Source: Candidatus Peribacter sp. (GTDB lineage Bacteria; Patescibacteriota; Gracilibacteria; Peribacterales; Peribacteraceae). From it: a stretch of 64,000 nt of DNA. Location of the stretch: positions 55,880 through 119,879 of the forward strand of contig JABIBA010000013.1 in NCBI GenBank assembly GCA_018652955.1, given 5' to 3'. Below, piece by piece: positions 30,166-63,925 of the stretch. The number at the start of each line of letters is the position of its first letter. Position 1 is the stretch's first letter. The translations under genes were made by a program, and so were the position numbers. Under the pieces are notes generated by a model that was given only the letters and a program-made list of their open reading frames with translations, was not told where the DNA came from and searched no databases.

Positions 30166-30921
30166 CTAGGAATTTGTAGGTATTTCCTGCTTTTGGCTTA
30201 TATTCTGCCCAGAAAGCATTCGTATTCTCTTGGATTTAACCGCTGCCCATGGAATCAGGCAAAAGAACTTTATAAAGTTCCAAGGGCCTCTTAGGCCTGG
30301 AGAAAGCTTGGATACACCGATTCTATGATCATAGGAGATGGGCTCATACAAAATTGTCGCTCGCTCTTTTCCGGCACAGACCATAAGTACGATATGGAGA
30401 GAGAACCAATTGGGATAGAGCTCTTTATATCTCTCTATCAGTTCTTTCTTACAGATGCGAAGACCAGAGTTGATGTCATCAATCTTTTGGCCAGAGCAAA
30501 CTTCCGCAAAGCGCCTTAGAAGGCCACGTGCATTTCTATGCAAGAACGGCCCTTTTGTAAGCTCTCTCCTAAATCCTACGATCATATCGGCCTCCTGTAT
30601 TTGTACATTCTCATATAGGCGAGGGATATCTTCTGGACGGTAGGTGTTGTCTGCATCAATCGTGGCGATCCATTCCCCTTTGGCGTGCTCTATTCCTGTG
30701 ACAATGGCAGCGCCATTCCCTGTATTTTTAATATGGCGAACTATTCGTAAAGAGGGGAGATCGATCTTCTTAAGTATCCCAGGCGTTGCATCCGTACTCC
30801 CGTCATCGACGGCGATAATTTCGTATCCTCCTTCTACTCCTTTAAGGGCTGCATCACTTCTTCTAATGATATCTTCTACAGCACCTGCTTCGTTATAGAT
30901 TGGGATGACAAGACTTAACAT
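30166..30921 (-). CDS. GT2 glycosyltransferase, polyprenyl-phosphate sugar synthase-like (Dpm1/GtrB/ArnC type)
   Basis: LSLVIPIYNEAGAVEDII...YEIIAVDDGSTDAT...ATIDADNTYRPEDIP is a typical GT2 DxD architecture of the Dpm1-like class. Confidence 0.85.
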   Translation of the reverse strand: MLSLVIPIYNEAGAVEDIIRRSDAALKGVEGGYEIIAVDDGSTDATPGILKKIDLPSLRIVRHIKNTGNGAAIVTGIEHAKGEWIATIDADNTYRPEDIPRLYENVQIQEADMIVGFRRELTKGPFLHRNARGLLRRFAEVCSGQKIDDINSGLRICKKELIERYKELYPNWFSLHIVLMVCAGKERATILYEPISYDHRIGVSKLSPGLRGPWNFIKFFCLIPWAAVKSKRIRMLSGQNISQKQEIPTNS

Positions 30922-30970
30922 TAATTAGAGGATAGTGGATAATGCATTATTTTCAATCTACAATCTGATT

Positions 30971-31708
30971 ATGTCGCTAAAAACCGCGAGCATCTCCGTT
31001 GTTATGCCTTCTTATAATGAGAGGGGTAATATTCCTGAAGCAGTTGAGAGAATTGTAGAGACTTTGGGTGATAGTCTTTTTGAAATACTTATTGTTGATG
31101 ACAACAGTCCAGATAAAACATGGGAGCTTGTAGAGGAGATGCACAAAGAAGATCCGCGGGTTAAAGTAATACGTCGCATAGAAAAGAGAGGACTGGCTTC
31201 GGCACTTGCTGATGGAACGAATGCAGCAGAGGGTGAGATTATTGTGTGGCTTGATTGTGATCTTGGTATTCCACCAGAAGACATCACAAAGTTGGTCGCA
31301 AAGATTCCAGAATACGACATCGCTATCGGATCGAGGTATCTCCCTGGAGGTATGGATACGAGGCATTGGTTTCGTGGTTGGTTGAGTACGGTTTTTAATG
31401 TTTACACACGAGCGATTCTTGGTCGTCACTTTTGGGATTGGACTTCTGGTTTTGCCGCAGCAAAGAAAGATGTGATGCGAAAGTGCCCTCTCACAGAAGA
31501 AGGGTTCGGTGAGTACTTTATTGAGTGGGTCTACATGTGTACGCTCAGAGATTTTAAGATGGTTGAGGTGCCATATCGCTATGGACTCCGTAAAGCTGGA
31601 GAATCCAAGACAGACAGTGATATCCGGGTATTTCTAAAGTTGGCAATTAACTATGCATGGCGAGTACTAGCCATTAGGATGAAACACGGTTCCCGAAAGA
31701 AATCATGA
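30971..31708 (+). CDS. GT2 glycosyltransferase, dolichyl/polyprenyl-phosphate mannose synthase-like
   Basis: ISVVMPSYNERGNIPEAV...ILIVDDNSPDKT...RIEKRGLASA...WLDCDLGIPPED. The track ORF starts at GTG 30935; I prefer ATG 30971. Confidence 0.85.
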   Translation: MSLKTASISVVMPSYNERGNIPEAVERIVETLGDSLFEILIVDDNSPDKTWELVEEMHKEDPRVKVIRRIEKRGLASALADGTNAAEGEIIVWLDCDLGIPPEDITKLVAKIPEYDIAIGSRYLPGGMDTRHWFRGWLSTVFNVYTRAILGRHFWDWTSGFAAAKKDVMRKCPLTEEGFGEYFIEWVYMCTLRDFKMVEVPYRYGLRKAGESKTDSDIRVFLKLAINYAWRVLAIRMKHGSRKKS

Positions 31709-32958
31709 GCTCTTTGCCCGCTATTCCAGAAACGACCTGTATTACAAAGTGCAGGGTATGCCAGTCCGATCAATTTACGGATTTGTATTCTGTAGGAGAT
31801 TTATACATCTCTAACTTTCCAGACAAGGCAGATGACGGAATCAAGGCACCTCTAGAAATGGTGATGTGTAACAAGTGTAAGTTGGTGCAATTACGTCACA
31901 GTGCTCCGCAAGAACTTCTCTACAGTCGGTTTTATTGGTATCGCTCTGGAGTGACAGACACGATGAAAAAAGCGCTGCGTAATATTACAGAAAGTATCGA
32001 ACAGCGTATGGACTTACAAGAAGGTGACGTGGTGCTTGATATTGGAAGTAACGACGGGACAATGCTGCGCACCTACGAAGCACCAGGCATCATTAAAGTT
32101 GGAGTAGAGCCTGCTTCTAATCTTGCAGAGGAAGGAGAAAAAGAGCTCGATCATTTTATTAATGATTTCTGGGAGTATGACAGCTACTTTGCAGAGGTAG
32201 GGAAGAAGGCAAAAGTCATAACAGCGATCGGAATGTTTTATGACATGGAAGACCCAGGAAAGTTTGTCGCAGATGCCGCAAAGGCACTAACAAATGACGG
32301 TATGTTTGTAACACAGTTGATGTGTCTTAAAAATCAACTTGATACCAATGACGTTGGAAACATTTGCCACGAGCACTTGGAGTTTTATTCATTACATTCA
32401 CTCGAGTACATGTTGAATGCCAACGGGTTCGAGATTATCGACTTAGAACACAACCTCGTAAACGGTGGAAGTTACCGTGTGTATTGTGGACTTAAAGGAG
32501 GCAATCCTCCTAAGGTCGAAGGGTCTGAAGAACGCATCGCAAAGTTTCGTAAAGAAGAAGAAGGAATAGACACCGAAGAAGTACACAAAGAATTTTTTGC
32601 TCGCATGGAAGAAAACAAAAGACAGTGTGTCGAATTTATTCGCGCAGAGGTCGCTAAGGGAAAGAAGGTGTGGGTGTATGGCGCTTCTACAAAAGGAAAC
32701 ACCATCTTGCAGTATTACGGACTGGACCACCGCGATATCGAAGCGGCATCTGAGCGCAGCCCAGAAAAGTGGGGAAAAGTAACAGTCGGAACAGGCATTC
32801 CAATTGTTTCTGAAGACGAAGCACGTAAAGCAAACCCAGACTACTTCTTAGTACTGCCGTATGCATTCTTTGATGAGTTTTATAAGCGCGAAGAGGAGTG
32901 GAGAAACGGAGGTGGAAAGTTCATAGTTCCTTTACCTGAATTCCGCGTTGTGTCATGA
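31705..32958 (+). CDS. NDP-sugar C-methyltransferase-like enzyme (TylCIII-type architecture)
   Basis: N-terminal Cys4 zinc ribbon (CRVCQS...CNKCKLVQL), SAM motif VLDIGSNDGT, and a C-terminal Rossmann-like part (VWVYGASTKGNT). Has ATGA overlaps with both neighbouring genes. Confidence 0.75.
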   Translation: MSSLPAIPETTCITKCRVCQSDQFTDLYSVGDLYISNFPDKADDGIKAPLEMVMCNKCKLVQLRHSAPQELLYSRFYWYRSGVTDTMKKALRNITESIEQRMDLQEGDVVLDIGSNDGTMLRTYEAPGIIKVGVEPASNLAEEGEKELDHFINDFWEYDSYFAEVGKKAKVITAIGMFYDMEDPGKFVADAAKALTNDGMFVTQLMCLKNQLDTNDVGNICHEHLEFYSLHSLEYMLNANGFEIIDLEHNLVNGGSYRVYCGLKGGNPPKVEGSEERIAKFRKEEEGIDTEEVHKEFFARMEENKRQCVEFIRAEVAKGKKVWVYGASTKGNTILQYYGLDHRDIEAASERSPEKWGKVTVGTGIPIVSEDEARKANPDYFLVLPYAFFDEFYKREEEWRNGGGKFIVPLPEFRVVS

Positions 32959-33926
32959 GCAAGAAAGCCCTCATCCTCGGTATCGGTGGCCAAGATGGTT
33001 CGTATCTTGCAGAGCTTTTGCTTAGCAAGGGATACGAAGTACACGGTTTGATTCGCAGATCTGCCACAGGAAATACGAGTAATATCGATCACCTAGAAGA
33101 TGACATTACATTGCACAGAGGAGACTTGGCTGATGTGCCTTCACTCTATGCTGCGATAAGTGCGAGTAATCCAGATGAGATTTATAACGAAGCAGATCAA
33201 GACCATGCAGGATGGAGTTATAGCCTTGTCGACTATGCGTCAGACATAACAGGTGCTGCACCTGGTCGAATTTTGGAGATCATTAAGCAACTTAATCCGA
33301 AGATCAAATACTTCCAGCCACTGACGTCTAACATGTTTGGAATGAGCGAGAGTGAAACGCAAAACGAAACCACACCGCTAAACCCACAAAGCCCTTACGC
33401 TTGCGCAAAAGCGTATGCGTGGTCGCTGACAAAGTACTATCGTCAGGTGCATGGAATATTTGCTTCTACAGCGATCTTTTTTAACCACGAATCTCCACGT
33501 CGCACCGATAGTTACGTAACACGTAAGATCACAAAGTCAGCTGCAAGAATCAAATTAGGATTACAGGATCAACTCTTGCTTGGAGACTTAACCGCTAAGC
33601 TCGATTTTGGTTTTGCAGGGGAGTATATGGAAGCTGCACATAACATTATGCAGCTCGATAGCCCTGATGACTTTTGTATCGGGACAGGAGAAGCAGTATC
33701 TGTTCAGCAATTTTTGGATGAGACGTTTGCTCAGGCAGGGCTCGACCCAAAAAGTTGTGTAGGAACAGACGAACGGTTTATGCGACCAGGAAAAACAAGT
33801 ACGCTCATCGCAGATTACTCTAAGGCAAATAAGACATTCGGCTACGAGCCAAAGGTAAAGTATGCAGATCTTATCAAGATTATGTTGGAGCACGATCTAA
33901 AGGAGGAGGGAAAACTGATTGTATAA
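32955..33926 (+). CDS. GDP-mannose 4,6-dehydratase-family NDP-sugar dehydratase (short paralog)
   Basis: [34 protein letters not shown]..., catalytic YACAKAY, and NHESPRR. It is a paralog of the canonical gmd at 38452. Confidence 0.8.
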   Translation: MSKKALILGIGGQDGSYLAELLLSKGYEVHGLIRRSATGNTSNIDHLEDDITLHRGDLADVPSLYAAISASNPDEIYNEADQDHAGWSYSLVDYASDITGAAPGRILEIIKQLNPKIKYFQPLTSNMFGMSESETQNETTPLNPQSPYACAKAYAWSLTKYYRQVHGIFASTAIFFNHESPRRTDSYVTRKITKSAARIKLGLQDQLLLGDLTAKLDFGFAGEYMEAAHNIMQLDSPDDFCIGTGEAVSVQQFLDETFAQAGLDPKSCVGTDERFMRPGKTSTLIADYSKANKTFGYEPKVKYADLIKIMLEHDLKEEGKLIV

Positions 33927-33960
33927 AAAAACCCGACCGAAGTGGTCGGGGACGTTTTGA
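33925..33960. terminator. Bidirectional hairpin terminator between convergent genes
   Basis: aaaaaaa-cccgacc-gaagt-ggtcggg-gacgtttt: a perfect 7-bp GC-rich stem flanked by an A-run and a T-run. Confidence 0.65.
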
Positions 33961-33976: not shown

Positions 33977-34651
33977 TTAGGAAAAGTGGTACGGATGGAC
34001 ACCTTCTTCTTCAAGCTGAGCAGTCAGATGTTCAAAGAATGTTTGGAACACTTCGGCGCGTCTTCTGCCGCGTGCCATTCCTTCTTTGGTGCGAATGCAG
34101 ACATCGCTGTCTGGGTTCACCCAGTCGAGTGAGTACGCGATGTCTCGCAGGACGGACTTCGGTTCGCGGTACGACGCCTCTGGATCGTCGAGCATGTTTC
34201 TGTAATCCACAGCGGGCAAGTTTGCGTAGTGTTGACCCGAGCGGATGAACAAGTCGACGTCCAAGTTGACCACACGGTCTGCGTCCTTCAGCGCGATGGC
34301 AACTTCCAATTCATCATCATCGTTCACATCGCTGTGCTTCGAGACAGCGTCTACGATGATGTTTGTCGAAGGATAGTCCAATGAAGCTCCAATCCATTCG
34401 CGCACTAGATCACTAGGGTCTTCGCTACCTGTTTTCTGGCAAATGCGGTCAGCGTTGTGGCACAGACCTGCAATACCTGCGAGGTTTGCATTGCGTACAC
34501 TGCCCCATTCTGCCATGACGATTTGCATCGCCTGTTCGCCGACCCTGAACGCATGGATCCAATCGTGGTGGCCAACGAGGCCAGCCTCTTCATGTGATTT
34601 GCGAACTCGGGCTGCAAGTTCTGAGTACAAATCCCAAATGCGATGAGTCAT
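33977..34651 (-). CDS. HD-domain metal-dependent phosphohydrolase
   Basis: GHHDWIHAFRV...GLCHNADR carries H..HD-type metal ligands. Preceded by a canonical GGAGGTG 6 nt before the ATG. Composition is visibly more GC- and CpG-rich than its neighbours. Confidence 0.7.
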   Translation of the reverse strand: MTHRIWDLYSELAARVRKSHEEAGLVGHHDWIHAFRVGEQAMQIVMAEWGSVRNANLAGIAGLCHNADRICQKTGSEDPSDLVREWIGASLDYPSTNIIVDAVSKHSDVNDDDELEVAIALKDADRVVNLDVDLFIRSGQHYANLPAVDYRNMLDDPEASYREPKSVLRDIAYSLDWVNPDSDVCIRTKEGMARGRRRAEVFQTFFEHLTAQLEEEGVHPYHFS

Positions 34652-34745: not shown

Positions 34746-36500
34746 TCAATTAACCTCGTAGACTATAAATCTACCATTCTTGTAAAGAATAGAGGCAGAT
34801 TTTGGTATTTGAATAGCTCTCTCGTCCTTCGTATCTGCCACAAGATATCGTACGTTGTACTTCTTAAGATATTCTTCGTAATTACTATCAATTTCAGCGC
34901 TTAGCTTCAGGGCATTTTGAATGTACGCATCTCCGCCAATCAGATCCATTGGGTCTACGGTAATCTTTTCATTTACGGATCCATCAAGCCCAAAGAGGAA
35001 TGTCTTTGCGACTCCTAGTGGAGTTGTATCTGGATAGGCACTGAGATACCTCAGTGAGTATGTAGGGTTAAGCCCTGCGTAATTCGATACTGACTCTCGT
35101 AAGAATGCTTCGTCGATATGGCCTGAGTAGGCGACGAGGAATCGCTCAAGCAACTCTTCGTCCGGTGCAACATGCAGAGCGGCTCTTGGTGTAAAGAGTA
35201 TGCCATTCGGTGAATAGAGAGGAATGTAAAAACTAAGCATTGGCCCTCCATGCAAGACGGCGTCATGAACACCTTCTTGTTCAAGGGCTGCAAACACATC
35301 TGCAAATCCACTGATATTTTCATGTGCTTCTACAACGCGCTCTTTGTAGGGCGAGAGTGTGTACGAGTAGGAGTTTTTTCTGATGAATGCTCGGTTCACT
35401 GTTGTAAAAATCATCGCTGCAACACACAGAATTATGACCATCTTCTCACACTGTGTTTTTCGCTTAGACAAGCTTTGTATGAGTATTGGGATTGCAACAA
35501 TATTTACCAACAGTGCTAGTCGCCATGGGTGCGTCACAAAATCCATAACCTTACCGGTAATCACATTGCTTGTAGCAGCTATCACCACTGCAGATGTGAG
35601 TAAAAGCAGGAGCGCTTCTTCGGATGAGAAGTGACGACGAAATCTTAGAAGCACTAGAGTGCCAATCAGTACAATGCTGTATTTATTATTATAAATAGTC
35701 AGAGGCAAAACAATGTGTGTATCTATCAAACCAGAGCGTGTATTGATTGCCGAGGCGACAGGATCGGTAAACAAAGAGATTGTTGTGAGGATTTGCGGAA
35801 TGCATGCAACGATAATTCCTACACCCATCATCATCAGAAGCTTGATTGTCTTGGTATCGCGACTAAAGAGAGCATATAAAAAGAAGAGTCCGATGGAGGT
35901 GAAGTTTTGCATCCACAAGTGCGGATACAAGTAGAAGGCAATGGCACTGATAATTCCTAGTGGCACGTATCTCTTAGCTTCATGTGGACTACGTAGCACC
36001 ATGAGTAGTGCAATCATAAATAATCCAAAGACGGGATAGATGGTTTGCATTATTCCTGGCCGAGAAATCAAGTTCGCAAGAGAGGCTATTCCCACGATGG
36101 TTATGAGCGCAGAGACTACGAGTCTTCCTTGTAATATTTTCCTATTCAGTACAAAGATAATGCCTCCAGTAATTGCTGCGTACAATACTGCGTTTATCGC
36201 ATAAACTACATGTATATCAAACCCAAGAAGCCCTGGAATAGACGCTAAATAGATGGGCAATAGAAGGCCGGGGAATGCGCTGTCTCTGTATTCAAGAAAG
36301 TAGGGGTTTCCGAGTGTAGCGTGCCCTGAGAGGACCTGTTGAATGTGTGTCAGGTAGTAGATCGTATCCGTTTCAAGTTGGGGAATAATTGCAGGAATCC
36401 AGCTGCCAAATGTTAGTTTATAAAAGAGAAACGGAACAAAGACAGCGAGGATAGAGCCCAGTATTACCACAGCCCATGAGTACTTCTCTTTTAGTTGCAT
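34746..36500 (-). CDS. Polytopic membrane protein with a C-terminal extracytoplasmic domain (GT-C-like glycosyltransferase/polymerase candidate)
   Basis: 584 aa. Roughly 10-12 hydrophobic helices occupy the first 370 aa, followed by a soluble tail of about 200 aa. It sits beside GT2, GtrA and sugar-nucleotide genes. Confidence 0.65.
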   Translation of the reverse strand: MQLKEKYSWAVVILGSILAVFVPFLFYKLTFGSWIPAIIPQLETDTIYYLTHIQQVLSGHATLGNPYFLEYRDSAFPGLLLPIYLASIPGLLGFDIHVVYAINAVLYAAITGGIIFVLNRKILQGRLVVSALITIVGIASLANLISRPGIMQTIYPVFGLFMIALLMVLRSPHEAKRYVPLGIISAIAFYLYPHLWMQNFTSIGLFFLYALFSRDTKTIKLLMMMGVGIIVACIPQILTTISLFTDPVASAINTRSGLIDTHIVLPLTIYNNKYSIVLIGTLVLLRFRRHFSSEEALLLLLTSAVVIAATSNVITGKVMDFVTHPWRLALLVNIVAIPILIQSLSKRKTQCEKMVIILCVAAMIFTTVNRAFIRKNSYSYTLSPYKERVVEAHENISGFADVFAALEQEGVHDAVLHGGPMLSFYIPLYSPNGILFTPRAALHVAPDEELLERFLVAYSGHIDEAFLRESVSNYAGLNPTYSLRYLSAYPDTTPLGVAKTFLFGLDGSVNEKITVDPMDLIGGDAYIQNALKLSAEIDSNYEEYLKKYNVRYLVADTKDERAIQIPKSASILYKNGRFIVYEVN

Positions 36501-37579
36501 ACTGAACGCATGGTCTCACAGACGTATGCTATTTGCTCGTCTGTAATTGCAAGACCAGAAGGAAGATAGAAACCACGTGCAGATGCATCTTCGGTTACCG
36601 GGAAGCTGTCATCTGTCTGTACGGCAATTGCAGGCTGGCTGTGGCACGGGAGGAAGAACTCGCGTGTATCTACTCCTTTTTCTTTTAGGCGGGCACACAG
36701 CTCATCTCTACCACTTTCTACCATGACGGCATACATCCAGTAGACATGTGTTGCGTAGTCTTTCTCTTGCGGGAGGCGTAAACCTTCTATTCCACTCAAG
36801 CCTTCTTTGTAGAGCGCTGCCATCGAACGTTTTCGTTCGAGTAAGTCATCGATTGCTTCGAGTTGTCCAAGTCCTACTGCAGCTTGCAGGTTAGTAGGGC
36901 GATAGTTAAACCCAAGTTCTTCATGGCGAAACCTCTTGGTCGGTGAGTGTGCAAGATCTTTGAGCCACCGCGCACGCTTCGCAAGCGCATCATCATCTGT
37001 CGTGATCATTCCCCCTTCTCCTGTAGTGATAATTTTATTTCCGTAAAAACTAAAGGCGTTGATGGTTCCAATGGAGCCACATTTTTTTCCTTTGTACTCG
37101 GCTCCATGTACTTCGGCTGCATCTTCGATGATTGCGAGATTATGCTTGGCGGCAATTTCGAGAATTGGATCCATATCACACGGAAGTCCGTAGATGTGCA
37201 CGGGCATTATTGCTTTTGTGCGGTCTGTGATTTTCGCTTCAATTAGCGCTGCATCTATATTCAAAGTTTCTGGATCAATATCGACAAAGACCGGAGTAGC
37301 TCCTGTGTACATCACCGAGAACGGTGAGGCGATCATCGTAAAGTTTGGAATGATCACTTCGTCACCTGGTCCGATATTTAATGTGCGAGCTGCAGTGTGT
37401 AGTGCGGATGTTCCACTGTTTGTAAAGATGGCATGCTTTACTCCAATAAACTTTGCAAAAGCTTCTTCAAATTTTTCTACACATGGACCTGCAGAAGAAA
37501 TCCAACCGGTATCCATTGCGTCTGCTACATACAACTTTGCAGCATCGGTAATCAGTGGTTCGTTTACGGGGACCTTCAT
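36491..37579 (-). CDS. DegT/DnrJ/EryC1-family aminotransferase, GDP-perosamine synthase-like
   Basis: 362 aa starting at MKVPVNEPLI. TGWISSAGPCVEKFEEAF, NSGTSALH, FSFYGNKIITTGEGGMI and NYRPTNLQAAVGLGQLE closely track the Per/RfbE pattern as I recall it. The N-terminal extension of the track ORF is rejected. Confidence 0.8.
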   Translation of the reverse strand: MKVPVNEPLITDAAKLYVADAMDTGWISSAGPCVEKFEEAFAKFIGVKHAIFTNSGTSALHTAARTLNIGPGDEVIIPNFTMIASPFSVMYTGATPVFVDIDPETLNIDAALIEAKITDRTKAIMPVHIYGLPCDMDPILEIAAKHNLAIIEDAAEVHGAEYKGKKCGSIGTINAFSFYGNKIITTGEGGMITTDDDALAKRARWLKDLAHSPTKRFRHEELGFNYRPTNLQAAVGLGQLEAIDDLLERKRSMAALYKEGLSGIEGLRLPQEKDYATHVYWMYAVMVESGRDELCARLKEKGVDTREFFLPCHSQPAIAVQTDDSFPVTEDASARGFYLPSGLAITDEQIAYVCETMRSVCN

Positions 37580-37989
37580 GATGCATCGCGGAATGTTTTC
37601 TCTTTTTCTCGTCCTGGGTATGGACCCTGCTTTACTTCGAGAATGCGTGTTGGCTCTAACATGGTGAGCGCATGTCCGCCCTTTAGAATGACAATGCATT
37701 CGCTGCCATTCACGGTTACTTCTTCGATAACATTCCAATCGTCATCAAATATTTTCACTGCAACGCTACCACTTTGAATCCAGATAAATTCTCCAGGAGG
37801 GGAGAGTTCGACACTCAGTGGATTATGTCTGTGCGGTACTACTTCGTATCCTTCCTCTCTATCAAAAAGCCCTACCTGCAATGGGTCTTCATCTTTTGTA
37901 AAAAATTTCACACCGTTCTCTACTGGTGTATCAGCAGTAAAAACGTGTGCGTAAATCTCTCCGTTATGTTCGATAGTTTGTTGAGACAT
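37576..37989 (-). CDS. Cupin-fold protein (sugar-nucleotide tailoring enzyme candidate)
   Basis: 137 aa. Cupin-like VPHRHNP...GEFIWIQSGSVAVKIFD...VILKGGHAL. ATGA overlap with the aminotransferase. Confidence 0.6.
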   Translation of the reverse strand: MSQQTIEHNGEIYAHVFTADTPVENGVKFFTKDEDPLQVGLFDREEGYEVVPHRHNPLSVELSPPGEFIWIQSGSVAVKIFDDDWNVIEEVTVNGSECIVILKGGHALTMLEPTRILEVKQGPYPGREKEKTFRDAS

Positions 37990-38046: not shown

Positions 38047-38430
38047 ATGAAGAGATTTCTCCCTCATCTCACACGCTTTGCGCTGTATATTTTCAGTGGC
38101 TGTAGTGCGGCTGTGGCCGATATCGGCAGTTATATGCTGATGATTAATATCAATGTCTGGTACATATACGCCTCTATTATCAGTGGAGTTATTGGCTTTA
38201 TAACCGCGTTTTTGCTGCATAAATACATTGTATTTCAGAAGAAAGAGGCGTTTATGCGACACCTTGGAAGGTACTTTGTGGTGGATATGATCAATCTGAG
38301 TATCGTGACTGGCCTCTTGTATGTTTTGGTAGATTTGTGGAGTATGGACCCAATGCCAGCTAAATTCGTTGCTCTTGCCCCTGTAGTTCTCTGGAATTTC
38401 TTTGTGTATAAGTTTGTCGTATATGTCTAA
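38047..38430 (+). CDS. GtrA-family membrane protein (polyprenyl-phosphate sugar translocation candidate)
   Basis: 127 aa with four hydrophobic helices. FALYIFSGCSAAVADIGSY...FLLHKYIVFQKK is typical of the GtrA-like family. Confidence 0.75.
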   Translation: MKRFLPHLTRFALYIFSGCSAAVADIGSYMLMININVWYIYASIISGVIGFITAFLLHKYIVFQKKEAFMRHLGRYFVVDMINLSIVTGLLYVLVDLWSMDPMPAKFVALAPVVLWNFFVYKFVVYV

Positions 38431-43866: not shown

Positions 43867-43882
43867 AAGAGTACGGGGAAGA

Positions 43883-47520: not shown

Positions 47521-47591
47521 AGTATCGGCACTCTACTTGAAAATTCTGTAGAAGTTAACGGAATAGACGAGGTTTGTGTTATTGTTTCTCT

Positions 47592-56494: not shown

Positions 56495-57973
56495 GTGCCT
56501 AAGCCTATACGCGCCATCATTTCACACTTCTCGTTCGATTTCTCCTATGCAGCTATCGAGGCTGTTATGAAGGAACGTTCGTTTGAGCATTGTGCAATCA
56601 TCTCTACTCCAGAGGTTCCTCGGCATTTCAGTGGCCTACCTCAGGAGAACCAAGAGTGGTTTAACTCTAGTGATATTCGTGGGTGTGATTACGGTACTGT
56701 GCAGTGGGATACGTTGCTACCTCTCGACGAAGAACTTATCTATGCGATGTATCATTGCGAGGCACTGTTTATGGAAACGGTTTGTCGGCAAGAATGGAAA
56801 TATGAAATTACGTATACACAGCGAAAGCAGTGGTACCTCAAGCAGTTGCGATTTTGGAATGATTACATTCAGAAGCACAGTATTAATTTGTATCTTGCTG
56901 CGTGGCTTCCACATGAAGTTCCTGATGTGGTGATTTACCACCTCTGTAAATATTATGACGTGCCGATTGTGTATTTTCATATGGCGATAGAGCAGGACAC
57001 TGGGTTTATTGAGAGCGACATAGAAGAGTCTGCAGTACAGATACAGAAGCGTTTTATAGAGTTGCAAAAAGAGTACGTACAAGAACAAAATCCTCTAGCC
57101 ATTGAGTTAAACGAACAGTTTGCTGCGCGGTACGAAAACCTTACGGCGCTCGAAGCGCAAAAACCAATCCTCGAAAGCCTAAAACGTAAAACATACTTCG
57201 GAAACGTACTGGAGATGTTTCTGAAAAAACCTGTGCACGTTGTTAAATGCATTGGGTTGTTTTGTACTCCTTACGGGGTAACGCGCTTACAGAGAACATG
57301 GAAACGTCGTCGTATAATAAGAGAGCGTAATGCGTATTACACTAAATATGCTGTGCATCCAGATCTCTCACAGCCTTACGTATATGTTGCACTTCACTTT
57401 CAGCCAGAAGCATCTACTACTCCGATGGGTGGTGTGTTTGCTAATCAACTTCTTCTTGTGCAGATGCTTGATGCGCATCTACCCGAAGGTGTGTTTATTT
57501 ATGTCAAAGAACATCCGAAGGAGAGTTCATGGCTTAGTAGGAGTATCGAAGAGTACGAAAGTCTTGTGTCGATTCCTCGTGTGCGTCTCGTTGCCCGTGA
57601 GGTGGATACTTTTGCTCTGCGCGAACACTGCACAGCAGTGGGTACTGCTACGGGCTCTGTGGGGTACGAGGCTCTCTTTCGCAGTAAGCCAGTCTTTATG
57701 TTTGGTCATCGGTTTTATCAATATGCTAGTGGCGTCTACCGCATTCATATGGACATAGACTTACAAGAAGCAATTCAGGCAGTCTTTGAGCGAGGGGAGA
57801 CACCGACGCTTAAAGATGCGAGGCTCTATCTGAAAGCTATGGAGGATACGCGTGTGCATGGCACTGTAAACCCTTGGGATCGCAAAGTGTCTAAATTAAG
57901 CGACAAAGAGCATGCTAAGGCTTGTAGCATATCTATCCTTGAAAAACTGGCAGAAATAGAGTCTGAGGCTTAG
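56495..57973 (+). CDS. Capsule_synth (KpsC/KpsS/LpsZ)-like glycosyltransferase, paralog A
   Basis: [25 protein letters not shown] and [26 protein letters not shown] fit the LQ..D / K.HP / StvG.EAl..gkPv..G..fY layout of beta-Kdo-transferase-type capsule proteins. GTG start. Confidence 0.6.
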
Positions 57974-57986: not shown

Positions 57987-58892
57987 ATGAAGAATATGTC
58001 GCATATTCGGCAGCTTGAAGCGGAGAGCATCCATATTCTTCGTGAGGTCGTTGCGTCATTTGAAAACCCAGTAATGCTGTATTCGATTGGGAAAGATTCT
58101 TCCGTGCTTTTGCACCTTGCTCGTAAAGCGTTTCATCCTGGTAAGCCACCGTTCCCTCTATTGCACGTTGATACAACGTTTAAGTTTAAAGAGATGACTG
58201 CGTTTCGTGACTCGTACGTACGTGATGAGCTTGGACTTGATCTTATTGTGCATACAAATGCTGACGGAGTAGAGAAGCAGGTCACGCCGTTTTCTCATGG
58301 AAGTTCTGCTTACACCGACATAATGAAAACAGAAGGGTTACGACAGGCGATGAGCAAGCATGGTTTTGATGCTGCTATTGGTGGGGCGCGTAGAGACGAG
58401 GAAAAATCTCGCAGTAAAGAACGTGTATTTTCTTTTCGCAATGCAGATCAGAGATGGGATCCAAAATCCCAACGACCAGAATTATGGCACTTGTATAACA
58501 CGCGTGTGCGCACTGGAGAAAGTATGCGAGTATTCCCACTAAGTAACTGGACTGAAGTTGATGTATGGCTTTACATTCTCCTAGAGCAAATTCCGATTGT
58601 TCCACTCTACTTTGCTGCTAAGAGACCAGTGGTCGAGCGCGATGGGACACTCATCATGGTTGATGACGAACGGCTGCCGTTGCTTCCTGGAGAAACACCG
58701 AAAGAGAAAATGATTCGGTTCCGTACACTTGGTTGTTATCCGCTAACTGGAGCGAACGAGTCTACTGCGCAAACGGTATCAGAAATTATCGAAGAACTCT
58801 TAAGCTGCCCTAACTCCGAACGTTTCGATCGTCTTATCGATTTTGATCAACCCTCTTCTATGGAAGAAAAAAAGAAGGCAGGATACTTTTAG
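57987..58892 (+). CDS. cysD: Sulfate adenylyltransferase subunit 2
   Basis: [27 protein letters not shown], and [17 protein letters not shown], which is classical CysD/NodP. Confidence 0.93.
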
Positions 58893-58894: not shown

Positions 58895-60715
58895 ATGACT
58901 AATCCGTATGTCATTAACGGCCCAATCCAAAAGTTCTTGCAGCGGCATGAGCGGTGCGATCTTGTGCGTGTGCTTACATGTGGAAGTGTCGATGATGGAA
59001 AAAGCACATTGATCGGAAGACTTCTTCTTGATGCGAGTGTTCTTCCGAAAGATACACTTGCAGCACTCGAAAAAGATTCGAAGCAATACGGCACACAAGA
59101 TGGTGCGTTGGACCCCGCTCTTTTAATAGATGGATTAAAGGCAGAGCGTGAGCAGAAGATTACGATTGATGTTGCACATCGGTTTTTCTCTTCTGAGGAA
59201 CGGACATTTATCGTTGCAGATACTCCAGGACATGAGCAGTACACACGCAATATGGTGACAGCAGCTTCGAATGCAGACATGGTGATTATCCTTCTAGATG
59301 CACGTAATGGAGTACTAGAGCAGTCTCGTCGGCATGCCTTTATTGCCTCATTGCTTGGCATAAAACACGCCATAGTTGCGGTAAATAAGATGGACCTCGT
59401 AGACTTTTCTGAGGACGTTTTTGAGGAGATCAAGAAAGACTTCTTGGTCTTTGCAGAGCGATTGCAGATTACCGATCTGCACTTTGTGCCGTTGTCTGCT
59501 CTTTCTGGAGATAATGTCATGGACCCAAGTACAAACATGCCATGGTACAAAGGGGGAACATTGATGCACCTGCTTAATACGATTCATGTCGTTTCCGATC
59601 GTAACCTCATCGACTTTCGATTTCCTGTGCAGTATGTGTCTCGTCCGTCACCTGACTATCGAGCATTCAGTGGCACAGTGGCCTCTGGGTCTGTGCGACC
59701 AGGTGATGAGGTACTTGTACTCCCTAGTCATAAAACAACGCGTGTACAGTCTATAGATACCTTTGATGGAGAACTCAGTAAGGCGTCCGCACTTTCTGCT
59801 GTCACACTTCGTCTCGAAGATAATATTGATATTAGTAGAGGAGATATGATTGTTCCGGTGCACAATGTTCCAGAACAAAGTCGCCAGTTTGATGCATTTT
59901 TGGTCTGGATGGACGAAGAGTCTTTGCAAGACGATAAAGAATACATCATTAAGCACACGACAAAGATGACGACTGCGCGTATCCGAACGGTGCGGTATGT
60001 CATGGATGTTAATACATTACGCAGAGGTGAAGCGGCACCACTTACAGCAAATGACATCGGACGTTGTGCTCTAACTATTGCAGAGCCTTTGCCCATTGAT
60101 AGTTACGAACGTAACCGCATTACAGGCTCTTTCGTTCTGATTGATCCTGTTTCCCATCAAACCAGCGCCGCTGGAATGATTGTAGATAGAAAAACTGAAG
60201 AAGGATTAGAAGGCGAAGAATCCTCTGCACGTCAGACATCAGATTTTCCTATCCTCTGGCTTACAGGAAATACAGGTTCTGGAAAATCTACCCTTGCGCA
60301 AGCAGCCGAAAGGCACGTCAATCGAAGTGCTCCTTCTTGGAATGCTGCAGCACGAAAACTTGTCGTGCTTGATGGTGACGAGTTGCGTGAAACTATCTCA
60401 CTTGATGAAGACCTTTCTGCAGAAGGGCGCAGAAAACATAACTTGCGCACAGCACGTCTTGCAAAGCTTTTGCAGCAAAAAGGATTCCTTGTTGTCGTAT
60501 CGGTTATTGCACCGTTTGAGTCTTTACGAAAAGAGATAGATGCCATCTGCAAACCTCAGTGGATTTATGTTGAGCGGTCTGGCATCACATCAGAAGACAG
60601 GCCATACGATGTGCCTAGCAACCCAGATTTTACTGTAAATACAGATACGCTAAACGAGCAAGAAGGCACACAGTCGTTTATTGACTATATGGTAGATGTG
60701 CTCGGAAACGATTAG
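58895..60715 (+). CDS. cysNC: Bifunctional sulfate adenylyltransferase subunit 1 (GTPase) / APS kinase
   Basis: GSVDDGKSTLIGRLL, DTPGHEQY and NKMD (CysN). The C-terminal P-loop is GNTGSGKSTLA, with LDGDELRE (APS kinase). NodQ-like fusion. Confidence 0.93.
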   Translation: MTNPYVINGPIQKFLQRHERCDLVRVLTCGSVDDGKSTLIGRLLLDASVLPKDTLAALEKDSKQYGTQDGALDPALLIDGLKAEREQKITIDVAHRFFSSEERTFIVADTPGHEQYTRNMVTAASNADMVIILLDARNGVLEQSRRHAFIASLLGIKHAIVAVNKMDLVDFSEDVFEEIKKDFLVFAERLQITDLHFVPLSALSGDNVMDPSTNMPWYKGGTLMHLLNTIHVVSDRNLIDFRFPVQYVSRPSPDYRAFSGTVASGSVRPGDEVLVLPSHKTTRVQSIDTFDGELSKASALSAVTLRLEDNIDISRGDMIVPVHNVPEQSRQFDAFLVWMDEESLQDDKEYIIKHTTKMTTARIRTVRYVMDVNTLRRGEAAPLTANDIGRCALTIAEPLPIDSYERNRITGSFVLIDPVSHQTSAAGMIVDRKTEEGLEGEESSARQTSDFPILWLTGNTGSGKSTLAQAAERHVNRSAPSWNAAARKLVVLDGDELRETISLDEDLSAEGRRKHNLRTARLAKLLQQKGFLVVVSVIAPFESLRKEIDAICKPQWIYVERSGITSEDRPYDVPSNPDFTVNTDTLNEQEGTQSFIDYMVDVLGND

Positions 60716-61680
60716 AAATAGGTCCCAGGACAGAGAGTCTCAAGCTGCAGGTTGTGCTCATTGTTTAGCAGTGTATTAGATTCTTTAAAGTAGGCATGGA
60801 GATCTTTTCGGAGTTGCTCGTCATGTACTTTTTTGTTTCCTAGTAGCGCAAAAGAGAGCTTCGATTGCAACATGTTGCGTACAAGAGAGACATCCAGTTT
60901 TCCAATACCAGGTACACGAATATTTGGAATAAGTGGGCTCTCGTTAAATGCAGAACGTACAAATCGATTTAAGAATCTTGCGGTTGCAATTTGCCTGCTG
61001 CCGTATCCTTTGTTTTGGTGACGGTCATCAAATTGCATATCTTCTGTGCCCATCCAATTCGTAATTTTTTGCACAAAAGCATGATTATCTTTTTTGAGTA
61101 ATTCAAACGGAAGAACTAATACATTCTCTTTACCAAAACATTCTGCGTAATAGCCTATTGCCGGTTTGTAATCTAGTTGATGAATACTGATACCGGATAA
61201 CCATCTCTTTGTTAGAGTTTCAAAAGATCCATCGTCGTAGCGAAGGAAATTGCGCAGGGGCTTTCTTCCGCCTAGGTGAACGTATTGTTTGTACAAAGAG
61301 ATCGCGAGATCATATTGATTACGTACAACGAATAACACTTTAGCCTTTGGAAATACTGTTGATAGGCGAGTGGCAATTACTTTTCCATTAACAAAATGAT
61401 CGAGAGATGCGTCACCACCAATAAATGCTTCGTGGGAGATGATGTTTTTCCCTGGGTGGCATGCTGCAGTTATTTCTTTTGACGTTTGTGCTTCACGGAA
61501 GTGGTATGCATCTGAATACATGATATCGCAGAATGCATCAGGGCAACTGTTGTAATTTACATAGTGCATGTCTTTGATATGTGGAAACACCTCTTTCTGT
61601 AGAAAGGTAGAACCTGTCTTTAGGTATCCCACATGAAGAAAGATTTCGTTGTTCATTGCTGTAGTATTGCTGTGGGTCAT
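60712..61680 (-). CDS. PAPS-dependent sulfotransferase-like protein
   Basis: The N-terminus HVGYLKTGSTFLQ resembles the 5'-phosphosulfate-binding loop. VVRNQYDLAISLYKQY resembles the 3'-phosphate-binding motif. Convergent with cysNC, with overlapping stops. Confidence 0.7.
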   Translation of the reverse strand: MTHSNTTAMNNEIFLHVGYLKTGSTFLQKEVFPHIKDMHYVNYNSCPDAFCDIMYSDAYHFREAQTSKEITAACHPGKNIISHEAFIGGDASLDHFVNGKVIATRLSTVFPKAKVLFVVRNQYDLAISLYKQYVHLGGRKPLRNFLRYDDGSFETLTKRWLSGISIHQLDYKPAIGYYAECFGKENVLVLPFELLKKDNHAFVQKITNWMGTEDMQFDDRHQNKGYGSRQIATARFLNRFVRSAFNESPLIPNIRVPGIGKLDVSLVRNMLQSKLSFALLGNKKVHDEQLRKDLHAYFKESNTLLNNEHNLQLETLCPGTYF

Positions 61681-63152
61681 AGCTCTGTAAATAGCGGTGT
61701 CAGTGTCTTGTGTATAATTTTGCCAGTGTCTATCAGGTACGTATTTTGGAGATCTCTCTGTTTATCGGTAGCAGGCTTCATGATGTATGGAGTACTTGCA
61801 TCTTGCATCGCTTTGAGAAATAGACGTAAATCATGCAGAGAAGGAGTTTCTTCGTCTTGAAAAATACTTTGTACTGCATTTCGGCAGTCATCATTAGTAT
61901 GAATTCTATAGATACCTGGTGCGTATTGATAAAACCGGTGCCCAAACATCAGTACAGGCTTTTCTCGAAATATTGCTTCTATACCTACAGTTCCAGTCAC
62001 TGTTGCTACTGCTTTTGCATTTCGCATCAACTGAAAAGTATCTGTATTACGAGGCATGAATTTCACTGAAGGTATTTGTAATAGCGTGCGATAAAACTCT
62101 TCGCTTCTGCATAATTCCCCTTGGGCAGGGTGCTCTTTAATGTAAATATTTACGCCAGGAGGTATGTGCGCAGCAAGCATCTGCATAATTAATTCTTGGT
62201 TTTGAAATGCTCCACCCCTAGGTGAAACAGACTCCTCCGGTTGCATATGCAGCGGAGCATAAATATATGGTGAAGAAAAATCTGGTTTTTCGACGTGGTC
62301 ATCATAAAATTGTGTCATTCGATGCTCTTTAAGTTTCCGAGACCAAACATTTGCAGAGCATAGTGAGGAGAAAAATTGCTTTGGTTTGTGGCGCAATGTC
62401 GATAACCCTTTTCGGTACCACTTTGTAAGAAAATGTTTTTTAGTGAGATGCTTTTCTCTTAGGGGAGTGCTTTGTGCAGCAATATCTTTTGTAGTTTGTA
62501 CTTTATAAAAATCTTCGTACGACTGAGATAGAGGAATAGGAAGTGATGGGTCACTATATTCTTGTTGCAACTTCTTGAATGCAGGGAGTAGTTGCTCACC
62601 AGATATTTCAAAATCTTGTAGCAGGGAAATCCCATCTACTACTAGATAGTGCTCCAAAAAATATGTTGGAATGCCTTTGAGTTTGCAGAGCATGTAGATC
62701 ACATAATCGTAGCATTGGTGTGGTGCATGAAATAACAGCAATAGATTAATATCTTCATTCTCGAGTGTGTGATTCCAATAGCGTAGGTGGTCTAAGTATT
62801 GTTGCCTTCGCTCTCGATACGGTATTTCACCGTGCAATGCGTAACGTTCTATCATAGAGAGAAACCCTATTTCGCAGTGACGCATTTTTTCTATAAGTTT
62901 TTCATCTAACGGTTTATACTTTGTCCAATCTATTTCTGGATAACGCCCAGCTCTCAAATCTTTTGCTGACATCCATTGTATATCTTGCGCATCAATATCG
63001 GGTGTGTACTCTTCTCCATTAGTGATGGAAATGCACTTCCCAATTTTACGATTGAGAAAAGCTTCTGTAACTATTTTCTTATGAAGTGGTCCGTCGAATG
63101 CCTTTAGAATAATATTCACCATTTCGATTCTATAAAAGAAATATGTACCCAT
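61677..63152 (-). CDS. Capsule_synth (KpsC/KpsS/LpsZ)-like glycosyltransferase, paralog B
   Basis: Collinear with paralog A over its full length: [64 protein letters not shown] overlap with the sulfotransferase. Confidence 0.6.
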   Translation of the reverse strand: MGTYFFYRIEMVNIILKAFDGPLHKKIVTEAFLNRKIGKCISITNGEEYTPDIDAQDIQWMSAKDLRAGRYPEIDWTKYKPLDEKLIEKMRHCEIGFLSMIERYALHGEIPYRERRQQYLDHLRYWNHTLENEDINLLLLFHAPHQCYDYVIYMLCKLKGIPTYFLEHYLVVDGISLLQDFEISGEQLLPAFKKLQQEYSDPSLPIPLSQSYEDFYKVQTTKDIAAQSTPLREKHLTKKHFLTKWYRKGLSTLRHKPKQFFSSLCSANVWSRKLKEHRMTQFYDDHVEKPDFSSPYIYAPLHMQPEESVSPRGGAFQNQELIMQMLAAHIPPGVNIYIKEHPAQGELCRSEEFYRTLLQIPSVKFMPRNTDTFQLMRNAKAVATVTGTVGIEAIFREKPVLMFGHRFYQYAPGIYRIHTNDDCRNAVQSIFQDEETPSLHDLRLFLKAMQDASTPYIMKPATDKQRDLQNTYLIDTGKIIHKTLTPLFTEL

Positions 63153-63202
63153 GATTTTTGCTCAAAATTGCCCCTCTTCCTACAATTTTGTTCTTTTAAT
63201 TC

Positions 63203-63925
63203 ATGGCAATGATTTATAATGCGATGTATCATTCATTTATGTTAAAAACTGTCAAAAACGCAGTATATAAAGGATTAAAGGCTAATAGCTCCGATTGCTC
63301 TCTCCATCCTTGTGTTAGTTATAACAACATTATCAAGACGCTATATTTACAGAGAATGCTTGCCCACGTGCAAGATATTCCTGGCGATGTAGTGGAGTGC
63401 GGTGTAGGAAAAGGTGAGAGCTTATTGATATTCACTTCCCTGCTTCAGGCAACTGGAAGTAAAAAGCATGTTTGGGGATTTGATTCCTTTGAAGGATTTC
63501 CAGAGCCTTCAAAGGAAGATGACAGTATCCGCAATCCTAAAAAAGGTGAATGGAGTGATACCAGTTTGACTGGCGTATTAGGCATGTTGCGTGAGGCAGG
63601 GTTTAGCCCATTAGATCTTCGGAAGAACGTTACTCTTGTACAAGGTTTTTTTAACGAAAGCTTATCGAAGTACAGAGGCGATACTATTGCACTTCTTCAT
63701 GTTGATGTTGATTTATATCAATCATATATAGATGTCTTAAGCGCTCTCTATCCTAAAGTGATTAAGGGGGGAGTTGTTATGTTTGATGAATACATGAGCA
63801 CTGGCGATCAGTTACGTTTTCCTGGAGCTCAAAAAGCGATAGATGAGTATTTTGGAGATAGGGTTTCTTGGATACAGAGAGATGAAGGTATGGGAAAATA
63901 CTATCTCATAAAGCAAGAAGATTAA
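63203..63925 (+). CDS. TylF/MycF-family O-methyltransferase
   Basis: GDVVECGVGKGESL, GFDSFEGFPEP and LHVDVDLYQSY...GGVVMFDEY form the macrocin-O-methyltransferase-like motif set. Confidence 0.75.
   Translation: MAMIYNAMYHSFMLKTVKNAVYKGLKANSSDCSLHPCVSYNNIIKTLYLQRMLAHVQDIPGDVVECGVGKGESLLIFTSLLQATGSKKHVWGFDSFEGFPEPSKEDDSIRNPKKGEWSDTSLTGVLGMLREAGFSPLDLRKNVTLVQGFFNESLSKYRGDTIALLHVDVDLYQSYIDVLSALYPKVIKGGVVMFDEYMSTGDQLRFPGAQKAIDEYFGDRVSWIQRDEGMGKYYLIKQED

Follow-up and report, generated by a model that had tools for sequence, protein, structure and literature searches.

Bacteria of the Candidate Phyla Radiation (CPR) have shed most of their biosynthesis, and what is kept shows what they need. The question raised by the locus described here is whether a long, contiguous run of glycan genes in such a genome builds one complex surface polymer, as an earlier note on this DNA had proposed, or serves several products. 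The stretch analysed, called the window throughout, comprises 64,000 nucleotides of Candidatus Peribacter sp. (assembly GCA_018652955.1, contig JABIBA010000013.1, here C9, positions 55,880 to 119,879 of the forward strand). The locus had been noticed at window positions 30166-63925; open reading frames (ORFs) were called, and all 32 genes there were scanned against Pfam. The reading that we prefer, with a probability of roughly 70%, is that these genes belong to a chromosomal surface-glycan "super-island" that serves several products and not one polymer.

The island extends from C9:86045 to C9:147806, a length of 61,762 bp with about 62 genes that are 97% coding and arranged in 22 alternating strand blocks. 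The window holds its left 55%; the right end would lie at window coordinate 91927, and Pfam searches of the next 34 kb of C9 trace the island for another 28 kb past the window, to C9:147806. A locus of more than 33 kb, as first estimated, is thereby enlarged to 61.8 kb. Genes for nucleotide-sugar synthesis, glycosyltransferases (GTs), modification enzymes and an exporter are co-located in it (about 60 genes, by Pfam and NCBIfam), and the island pools most of the nucleotide-sugar and glycosyltransferase genes of the cell.

The source assembly measures 1,199,557 bp in 17 contigs (99.14% complete, 0.29% contamination), and the island occupies 5.15% of it, or 5.35% (64,180 bp) when the PfkB kinase and S-adenosylhomocysteine (SAH) hydrolase genes that directly follow its right end (C9:147850-150224) are counted. 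The best 80 relatives of its SufB in a species-representative collection are all from CPR metagenome-assembled genomes (MAGs), at 79-92% identity, and almost every one bears the label Candidatus Peribacteria, Peregrinibacteria or Peribacteraceae. The organism is an uncultivated, small-genome CPR/Patescibacteria bacterium of the Peribacteraceae, and not a large-genome organism in which such loci would be ordinary. The guesses of a CPR genome of about 1 Mb and of a locus worth several percent of it thus hold.

The left edge of the island is sharp. Window positions 1-27700 carry housekeeping genes (ssb, murB, gltX, murG, ftsW, sigma-70, secA, holB and sufCBD), and these are followed by the only small-subunit rRNA gene of the genome:

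27912..29378, minus strand: 16S rRNA gene, left boundary, outside the island (Rfam RF00177, 1467.6 bits, full length).

The 16S gene stands alone against the edge, and the 64-kb window has neither a 23S gene nor a tRNA. On the right, the SAH hydrolase is followed by a PolX-like gene, a large serine recombinase (Resolvase, Recombinase and Zn_ribbon_recom domains; 4 kb past the right end), a 112-aa ORF and a 1893-aa protein (C9:150756-159361). This segment may be an integrated element; the 10-kb window at C9:150-160k lies at the 90th percentile of tetranucleotide distance.

A block of this length may raise the suspicion that it is an assembly chimera, or a recent foreign island from a large-genome organism. 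The serine recombinase, a mild heterogeneity of GC content (39-40% at 60712-63925, 52.7% in an ORF at 33977-34651) and the breaking of congener MAG contigs within the island could be taken in that sense. However, exact-protein look-ups at four island points recover the same gene order in six independent assemblies (JGI 3300025770, on one 110.5-kb contig; GCA_018676795.1; GCA_018664905.1; GCA_018660645.1; ERZ23491230; JGI 3300072015), and together the look-ups span SufB, the island, the SAH hydrolase and the recombinase. When the distance of 10-kb windows from the genome mean is ranked as a genome percentile, those of the island fall between the 5th and the 68th, with no tetranucleotide break inside. 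Both arms occupy the same chromosomal position in congeners, which share both flanks, and the GT-C protein of the core arm is family-specific. The island genuinely belongs to the genome and is no assembly artefact; a chimeric or foreign origin is refuted as far as sequence data allow and is scarcely credible.

Comparison with relatives reveals how the island is built (genomes are given by our own handles). In G007, a congener in 2 contigs whose SufB is 84% identical, 58.7 kb separate SufB from SAH hydrolase. Both arms are kept there at 58-91% protein identity and the centre is reshuffled: it retains the module of a SIS-domain isomerase, NeuB1, short-chain dehydrogenase/reductase (SDR) and TIM-barrel enzyme, the ABC exporter, the KpsC/S-like pair and CysD/CysNC, and in the G007 island there is neither a legionaminic-acid (Leg)/acetamidino module nor a sulfotransferase homolog. 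In the congeners G001 and G005 the right arm is likewise retained (75-93% identity), and contigs of both break inside the island (G001:C20/C21 and G005:C37/C1 end within it). Such breaks are the usual sign of strain heterogeneity, so that island sizes taken from draft MAGs are underestimated. In other genera the island is not beside SufB and was located through NeuB matches; in G177 and G142 it measures about 45 and about 46 kb, and both copies share the core arm and include NeuB modules, the ABC exporter and the KpsC/S pair. At the G164 site that was inspected there is no more than a Leg-type cluster of 8 kb, and in G008, G011 and G020, outside the genus, no island follows SufB. The position is thus conserved and the content varies among relatives (G007, G001 and G005; G177 and G142), as in surface-glycan clusters; the architecture is one of conserved arms around a strain-variable centre, a mosaic rather than one operon. 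Paralogs within the island are old, with 26-45% identity among them. The locus is not unique either, since islands of 45-55 kb were found in a congener and two other genera.

These comparisons also bear on the view that all of the roughly 62 genes form one pathway and build a single complex heteropolymer. Contiguity, the coding density of 97%, the single exporter and single sulfotransferase, and a gene order stable across six assemblies of the organism agree with it. Nevertheless, the right arm occurs in 19 of 22 genomes of the family, including at least eight without NeuB, and strong NeuB matches, in one or two copies each, occur in only 10 of the 22. Because many relatives have the right arm but no NeuB, the island serves more than one pathway. 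Moreover, G007 lacks the whole Leg/acetamidino module yet retains both arms, the genes are split into 22 alternating strand blocks, and two separate sets of GT2, GtrA and GT-C proteins, each with its own sugar supply, are predicted. A single product is therefore improbable, and the one complex polymer of the earlier note gives way to the several products that we prefer. The three NeuB copies found here are the maximum in a class sample of 201 genomes.

The left end of the island, with the set of the left arm, comprises the following genes.

30166..30921, minus strand: GT2a, polyprenyl-phosphate sugar synthase type, opening the island (PF00535, E=6.3e-29; IPIYNE motif).
30935..31708, plus strand: GT2b, Dpm1/ArnC-like polyprenyl-phosphate glycosyltransferase (PF00535, E=1.7e-36; 80% identical in G007).
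31705..32958, plus strand: nucleoside-diphosphate-sugar C-methyltransferase of the TylC3 type with a zinc-binding N-terminus (PF08484, E=1.8e-39; PF13489, PF08421).
32955..33926, plus strand: Gmd-like extended SDR (PF16363, E=5.1e-89; 45% identical to the Gmd paralog).
33977..34651, minus strand: 224-aa ORF, called an HD hydrolase in the earlier note (no Pfam, NCBIfam or PDB match).
34746..36500, minus strand: 584-aa membrane glycosyltransferase of predicted GT-C fold (at least 9 transmembrane helices by TM scan; C-terminal soluble domain).
36491..37738, minus strand: DegT/perosamine-synthase-like pyridoxal-phosphate aminotransferase (PF01041, E=1.1e-122; gene callers use a later start, giving 362 aa).
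38047..38430, plus strand: GtrA-family small membrane protein, putative polyprenyl-phosphate-sugar flippase (PF04138, E=2.6e-21).
38452..39510, plus strand: GDP-mannose 4,6-dehydratase, Gmd (PF16363, E=2.1e-141).

A homolog of GT2a, 78% identical, stands at the same place in G001. The Gmd-like SDR is probably a GDP-4-keto-6-deoxy-sugar reductase or dehydratase, judging from its family. The 224-aa ORF has a GC content of 52.7%, against about 44% for its neighbours, and has no counterpart in the G007 island; possibly it was inserted recently and has nothing to do with glycans.

The 584-aa protein has neither a Pfam nor an NCBIfam match. Its AlphaFold (AF2) model (pLDDT 89.8) matches STT3, PglB, AftA and ArnT in Foldseek with probability 1.0 and a TM-score of about 0.5, and because of these matches it is assigned a GT-C fold, in agreement with the initial call of a GT-C-like membrane protein. 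Residues D45 and Y49 are invariant, D45 lying in the first loop. The family had appeared to be very rare, with 18 relatives in a word-indexed search; an exhaustive profile search overturned this with 754 clusters at E<=1e-10.

The counterpart of this protein lies in the right arm. Past the window, the following were located.

C9:136986-137426: second GtrA (PF04138).
C9:142992-144083: GT2-GtrA fusion (PF04138 and GT2).
C9:144367-145536: TM389, a 389-aa protein with 8 transmembrane helices, no Pfam model and a predicted GT-C fold.

The model of TM389 reaches a pLDDT of 91.5, and its best fold matches are ALG12 (TMq 0.71) and ArnT (0.67); D29-E30, in the first loop, are invariant. Of the 22 genomes sampled from the family 19 carry TM389, against none of about 178 sampled elsewhere in the class, so that it is a clean family marker for the Peribacteraceae. 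At least 360 homologs exist, the named ones from Peribacteria/Peregrinibacteria, and only one of them has any Pfam domain. The SAH hydrolase stays beside the arm of UDP-glucose dehydrogenase and TM389 across genera (G001, G005, G007, G009, G017 and G177), as does the PfkB (adenosine-kinase-like) gene in the genomes inspected. This linkage to the methyl cycle fits the many methyltransferases of the island. Also past the window are a PHP-ATP-grasp protein, a class III aminotransferase, a GT4, a polysaccharide deacetylase, two UDP-sugar dehydrogenases and four epimerase-type SDRs.

Taken together, GtrA (PF04138) occurs three times in the island (38047-38430, C9:136986-137426 and the fusion at C9:142992-144083). 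GT2a, GT2b and the GT2-GtrA fusion carry Dpm1/ArnC-like N-terminal motifs that mark them, at the family level, as polyprenyl-phosphate synthases, and the 584-aa protein and TM389 are both polytopic GT-C proteins with acidic residues in the first outer loop and a predicted activity to match. By these families and fold models the island would hold two full three-component sets of GT2, GtrA and GT-C, one per arm.

Between the arms lies the variable centre; the remaining island genes of the window are these.

39482..40327, minus strand: 281-aa ORF, weakly FkbM-methyltransferase-like, unconfirmed (PF05050, E=0.016, below cut-off; no NCBIfam match).
40261..41565, minus strand: GT-B transferase, TagB/TagF- and polysialyltransferase-like (PF04464, E=1.9e-8; PF07388, E=1.8e-5).
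41569..42153, minus strand: SIS-domain (GmhA-like) sugar-phosphate isomerase (PF13580, E=1.9e-26).
42156..43010, minus strand: NeuB1, divergent NeuB-family synthase without an SAF domain (PF03102, E=1.8e-76).
43033-43914 and 43883-44683, minus strand: two SDRs (PF13561, PF00106).
44697..45524, minus strand: xylose-isomerase-like TIM-barrel enzyme (PF01261, AP_endonuc_2, E=5.9e-23).
45524..46687, minus strand: CMP-ulosonic acid synthetase fused to a KdsC/KDN-9-P-type HAD phosphatase (PF02348, E=1.6e-26; PF08282).
46684..47520, minus strand: FkbM-family methyltransferase (PF05050, E=8.1e-11).
47574..48680, plus strand: class I S-adenosylmethionine (SAM) methyltransferase (PF13489, E=6.9e-18).
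48690..49814, plus strand: GT4 glycosyltransferase (PF13439, PF00534).
49804..50550, minus strand: methyltransferase (Methyltransf_11; PF08241, E=1.1e-7).
50563..51498, minus strand: 311-aa ORF, called a dioxygenase in the earlier note, unconfirmed (PF05721, PhyH, E=0.061 only; no NCBIfam or PDB support).
51561..53384, plus strand: type IV (ABCB/MsbA/PglK-class) half-transporter (PF00664, PF00005; PDB matches ABCB1, MsbA and BmrA).
53430..54131, plus strand: CMP-ulosonic acid synthetase 2 (PF02348, E=2.5e-25; PseF-like, below cut-off).
54128..55630, plus strand: NeuB2-cupin fusion, divergent synthase (PF03102, E=6e-44; PF07883, E=5.5e-12).
55627..56415, minus strand: class I SAM methyltransferase (PF13489, PF08241).
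56495..57973, plus strand: KpsC/KpsS-like (Capsule_synth) transferase 1 (PF05159, E=3e-9; 35% identical to paralog 2).
57987..58892, plus strand: CysD, sulfate adenylyltransferase subunit 2 (PF01507, E=3.9e-54).
58895..60715, plus strand: CysN-CysC fusion of the sulfate adenylyltransferase GTPase subunit and adenosine 5'-phosphosulfate (APS) kinase, making 3'-phosphoadenosine 5'-phosphosulfate (PAPS) (PF00009, PF22594, PF01583).
60712..61680, minus strand: PAPS-dependent sulfotransferase (PF00685, E=1.1e-9; weak PDB sulfotransferase matches).
61677..63152, minus strand: KpsC/KpsS-like (Capsule_synth) transferase 2 (PF05159, E=3.8e-13; PDB KpsC, E about 1e-3).
63203..63925, plus strand: TylF-type O-methyltransferase (PF05711, E=1.7e-30).
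63927..64000, minus strand: 3' end of a PseB/PglF-like dehydratase gene (Pfam on adjoining DNA).

The initial inventory of these genes largely stands: 29 of the 32 show the Pfam domain or, in one case, the fold that the earlier note had named, and three calls are left unconfirmed. For the dioxygenase the PhyH value of 0.061 is all that was found, and for the HD hydrolase there is an H..HD motif seen by eye. Six methyltransferases are firm where at least seven had been counted, the seventh (39482-40327) reaching only E=0.016 for FkbM.

The centre would make up to three different ulosonic acids. One route is a legionaminic-type nonulosonic acid pathway that starts at the right end of the window.

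C9:119806-131920: legionaminic-type nonulosonic acid pathway (Pfam and NCBIfam).

It includes a PglF/PseB-like dehydratase (Polysacc_synt_2), a DegT aminotransferase, a hydrolysing 2-epimerase (Epimerase_2), a NeuB with SAF domain (NeuB3), a third CMP-transferase (CTP_transf_3) and a GNAT protein, with an acetamidino branch of WbuX and HisH/HisF-like proteins. NeuB3 scores 441 bits against the NeuB_NnaB cut-off of 399.65, and WbuX 363 bits (NCBIfam). Since Epimerase_2 is present, as opposed to a PseG-type hydrolase, the module argues for legionaminic or neuraminic acid over pseudaminic acid (Pse). The other two synthases are more divergent. NeuB1 and NeuB2 reach 247.6 and 147.6 bits against the same NeuB equivalog cut-off, and 203.8 and 130 bits against the PseI cut-off of 340.25; on these scores they can be assigned to the NeuB family and no further. 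The PseF, KdsC and KDN-9-P phosphatase matches of the fusion at 45524..46687 are likewise all below their NCBIfam cut-offs. Long ORFs similar to the NeuB2-cupin fusion occur in G069 and G142.

Sulfation is a further activity suggested by the centre, in which ATP sulfurylase, APS kinase and a sulfotransferase, the parts of a PAPS-dependent module, are all present. Homologs of the sulfotransferase (60712..61680) carry PF00685 and PF13469, and a phmmer search with it against all ORFs of the genome returned only itself, with no second copy. A corresponding search with CysD gave no CysH-like paralog, which is weak evidence; because none was found, sulfation is probably the sole use of the PAPS. In this genome the two KpsC/S paralogs flank the PAPS cassette; the paralogs are adjacent in G007 and G177 and separated by other genes in G142. 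Full-length CysN-CysC occurs in 9 of 151 Peribacteraceae genomes and a stand-alone APS kinase (about 175 aa) in about 30 more, so that an APS kinase domain is found in 39 of the 151, about a quarter, and PAPS use may be common in the family.

How would the products leave the cell? The statement that Wzx, Wzy, Wzz and KpsMT are missing is confirmed for every island gene scanned against Pfam. A Wzx/Wzy-dependent pathway is not represented in the island, where Pfam finds no flippase, polymerase or initiating phosphoglycosyltransferase, and neither is a KpsM/KpsT pair of the ABC2 type, the island exporter being an ABC_membrane plus ABC_tran protein of the ABCB type. The further suggestion that export and polymerisation depart from textbook schemes does not follow, since two GT2+GtrA+GT-C sets and an ABCB-type exporter beside KpsC/S-like transferases are both textbook designs. 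The half-transporter (51561..53384), whose homologs in the islands of G007, G177 and G069 are 58-61% identical, is a putative exporter or flippase for a lipid-linked glycan.

Enzymes for initiation and attachment lie outside the island: one Bac_transf phosphoglycosyltransferase, two MraY/WecA-family genes, one Wzx-like gene (Polysacc_synt, C9:26423), three Wzy_C genes, one LCP ligase, and the only ABC2 permease, with its ATPase, on contig C17. A second glycan cluster at C9:179404-201000 contains a 935-aa protein (16 transmembrane helices) followed by a GT2 and a 112-aa protein (3 helices), and also five GT4, an RmlA-like nucleotidyltransferase, an epimerase and a 565-aa protein with 8 helices. 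The 935-aa, GT2 and 112-aa genes are possibly another GT-C set. With this cluster included, about 7% of the genome is glycan-related.

A specific version of our preferred explanation, compatible with it, is that the island supports general protein O-glycosylation. An ulosonic-acid-capped, lipid-linked oligosaccharide would be transferred en bloc by Wzy_C/PglL-like enzymes to S-layer, pilin or large secreted proteins, as happens in Tannerella forsythia, or with ulosonic acids in a range resembling that of Campylobacter flagellin. The three Wzy_C-domain proteins, the PglK/MsbA class of the exporter and the weak match of the TagB-like GT-B to the Tannerella transferase family for nonulosonic acids (NulO) are consistent with such a system. 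Acceptors may be at hand, as Peribacter genomes abound in type IV pili, S-layer genes and large Cys-rich proteins that are exported (PMC4736985). Within the window, a 1347-aa ORF on the minus strand (350-4393) has no Pfam match and belongs to the class of large exported proteins reported for Peribacter; it is a candidate glycan acceptor. However, no oligosaccharyltransferase lies inside the island and no Maf-type transferase is found by Pfam; the LCP ligase and ABC2 exporter fit wall-linked polymers equally well, and the KpsC/S-like pair points to a lipid-anchored polymer. This version is possible, and we hold it only tentatively.

Alternatively, the genes could form a cluster for a glycosylated, antibiotic-like natural product. 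Macrolide sugars are typically tailored by TylC3-type C-methyltransferases, TylF, DegT and deoxysugar enzymes. The Methyltransf_14, TylF and DegT families are present here, and the ABCB-type exporter could be a drug pump. Against this, surface-glycan loci are characterised by CMP-ulosonic acid pathways, GtrA, GT-C and KpsC/S-like enzymes, and the roughly 62 genes scanned contain no polyketide synthase, nonribosomal peptide synthetase, terpene or ribosomal-peptide (RiPP) core enzyme. As no core synthase is present, this explanation is rejected as very improbable.

If the island serves several surface glycans, as we prefer, its genes could act together as follows. Gmd, the Gmd-like enzyme, DegT and the C-methyltransferase would supply 6-deoxy, amino and C-methyl sugars derived from GDP-mannose, and two dehydrogenases with four epimerase/decarboxylase-type SDRs would supply sugars derived from UDP-glucuronic acid. 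Three different CMP-activated ulosonic acids would be made in the cytoplasm. The first would be a legionaminic-type 5,7-diamino sugar with an acetamidino branch (WbuX and HisH/HisF-like proteins), the second the product of a phosphate route (SIS isomerase, SAF-less NeuB and a KdsC-like phosphatase fused to the CMP-transferase), and the third the product of the NeuB-cupin fusion. After initiation by phosphoglycosyltransferases encoded outside the island, the GT4, the TagB/polysialyltransferase-like enzyme and the paired KpsC/S-like transferases could assemble acidic, lipid-carried glycans at the inner membrane face; the GT-B at 40261..41565 is a candidate CMP-ulosonic-acid transferase by its family. 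At least six methyltransferases would act on the glycans, with SAH hydrolase and PfkB kept beside the island, and the single sulfotransferase would use PAPS made on the spot by CysD and CysN-CysC. The product could then be flipped by the ABCB/MsbA/PglK-class exporter and joined either to peptidoglycan, through the LCP ligase, or to proteins, through Wzy_C/PglL-like enzymes. Independently, in each arm, the GT2 would charge polyprenyl phosphate with a sugar, GtrA would flip the product and the GT-C would transfer the sugar to a surface acceptor. The left set would be fed by amino and C-methyl 6-deoxy sugars derived from GDP-mannose, and the right set by sugars derived from UDP-glucuronic acid.

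A bolder form of this scheme is that the centre makes a sulfated, multiply methylated glycan with up to three ulosonic acids and at least one new sugar, which would be the first sulfated CPR glycoconjugate and a coat of the Peribacteraceae for strain-specific recognition or against phages. Candidates for the new sugar would be a phosphate-route acid formed by the SAF-less NeuB1 from a GmhA-isomerised heptose phosphate, and the product of the NeuB2-cupin fusion. We regard this form as unlikely, though far from fanciful.

Several observations weigh against our interpretation. All functions are assigned from family-level homology or from fold. All three CMP-transferases, and every NeuB protein but one of the three, fall below NCBIfam equivalog cut-offs, and the KpsC/S-like and TagB-like assignments come from weak matches (E from 1e-3 to 1e-13), the Capsule_synth pair having no NCBIfam match at all. 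The class of the ABC exporter also contains multidrug pumps. An initiating transferase is missing from the island. Finally, the 224-, 311-, 281-, 415- and 324-aa ORFs gave nothing usable in Pfam, NCBIfam or PDB searches, and these five may not be glycan-related.

The island can also be set beside known systems. The flagellin O-glycosylation locus of Campylobacter jejuni comprises about 50 genes in a 1.6-Mb genome. As in the island, one large strain-variable locus sits in a small genome; there is more than one nonulosonic-acid pathway (Pse and Leg), an acetamidino branch with a PseA/WbuX-type amidotransferase, and methyl modification (PMC13130089). In contrast, Pfam finds no maf transferases in the island, flagellin genes are not in its vicinity, and its G/C homopolymer runs all stay below 7. 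Phase variation in the Campylobacter style was rejected, as homopolymer tracts are absent from the island. It adds an ABC exporter, KpsC/S-like enzymes, two GT-C sets and sulfation.

Similarly, the rhamnose cell-wall polysaccharide (Rha-CWPS) and EPA loci of Gram-positive cocci (PMC9574508) share a single-membrane logic with lipid-linked cytoplasmic assembly, ABC export and an LCP protein encoded elsewhere. Side chains are added outside by three-component systems, and the locus has conserved as well as variable parts. The GT-C members of three-component systems (GT-A, flippase and GT-C) lack sequence conservation (PMC9574508). The island differs in having no rhamnan genes, in an ABCB-type half-transporter instead of an ABC2 pair of the RgpCD type, in the dominance of ulosonic acids, methylation and sulfation, and in being about twice as long.

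Group 2 capsule (Kps) loci of E. coli and Neisseria also place two Capsule_synth paralogs near an ABC exporter and CMP-ulosonic-acid synthesis. Here, however, KpsM/KpsT and KpsD/KpsE are missing from the island, KpsC is matched only remotely (E about 1e-3 in the PDB), and the donor would be a NeuB-derived acid and not KdsA-derived Kdo. The combination of a GT2 synthase, GtrA and a polytopic GT-C, twice in the island, is that of the Gtr, Arn and CsbB-GtcA-YfhO systems. The right-arm set, with UDP-glucose dehydrogenase, decarboxylase/epimerase-type SDRs and a deacetylase about 8 kb off, recalls Arn in particular (ArnA, ArnC, ArnD and ArnT). Unlike these systems, both GT-C families of the island are without a Pfam model, and the right arm has no ArnB-type aminotransferase.

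O-glycosylation in Tannerella forsythia offers a last parallel, since it uses a TagB-like GT-B as NulO transferase, modified (acetamidino) NulO and methylated sugars, and the BFO_1060 family is its Pse/Leg transferase (PMC5420450). The GT-B of the island scores only 18.7 bits against the BFO_1060 model (NF046086), whose cut-off is 200, and protein acceptors are not in evidence. The island thus fits none of the Campylobacter, Rha-CWPS/EPA, Kps and Tannerella systems fully; it belongs to the hypervariable type of surface-glycan island.

For Ca. Peribacter riflensis, of the same lineage and with genomes of similar size (1.25 Mb), passages of the paper by Anantharaman et al. (2016, PMC4736985) report genes for surface polysaccharide, amino sugars, sialic acid, rhamnose and perosamine, and a priority of surface-glycan synthesis in Peribacteria. 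Those passages mention no contiguous island of about 60 kb, no layout of conserved arms and variable centre, no three NeuB pathways and no GT-C sets. As "sulfat" does not occur in the text of PMC4736985, no PAPS/sulfotransferase module is described there. A heavy investment of Peribacteria in surface glycans is therefore already published in qualitative form, and what the present study adds is the anatomy in detail and enzymes open to testing, with no new principle. In the literature searched, no paper joins CPR with nonulosonic acid, the sole one on CPR and sulfotransferase is irrelevant, and none describes a conserved-arm island of about 60 kb, a CPR genome with three NeuB, a sulfation cassette or these two GT-C families.

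The finding offers concrete targets in three orphan NeuB pathways, a sulfation cassette and two GT-C families that no Pfam model covers. Diversifying selection by phages, grazers or partners on an exposed glycan is the probable cause of the variable centre. In this organism 5% of a 1.2-Mb genome is kept as one block of surface-sugar genes, which recurs across the family with a reshuffled centre. The pattern fits a surface glycan that is a main interface of these bacteria with their partners, phages and grazers.

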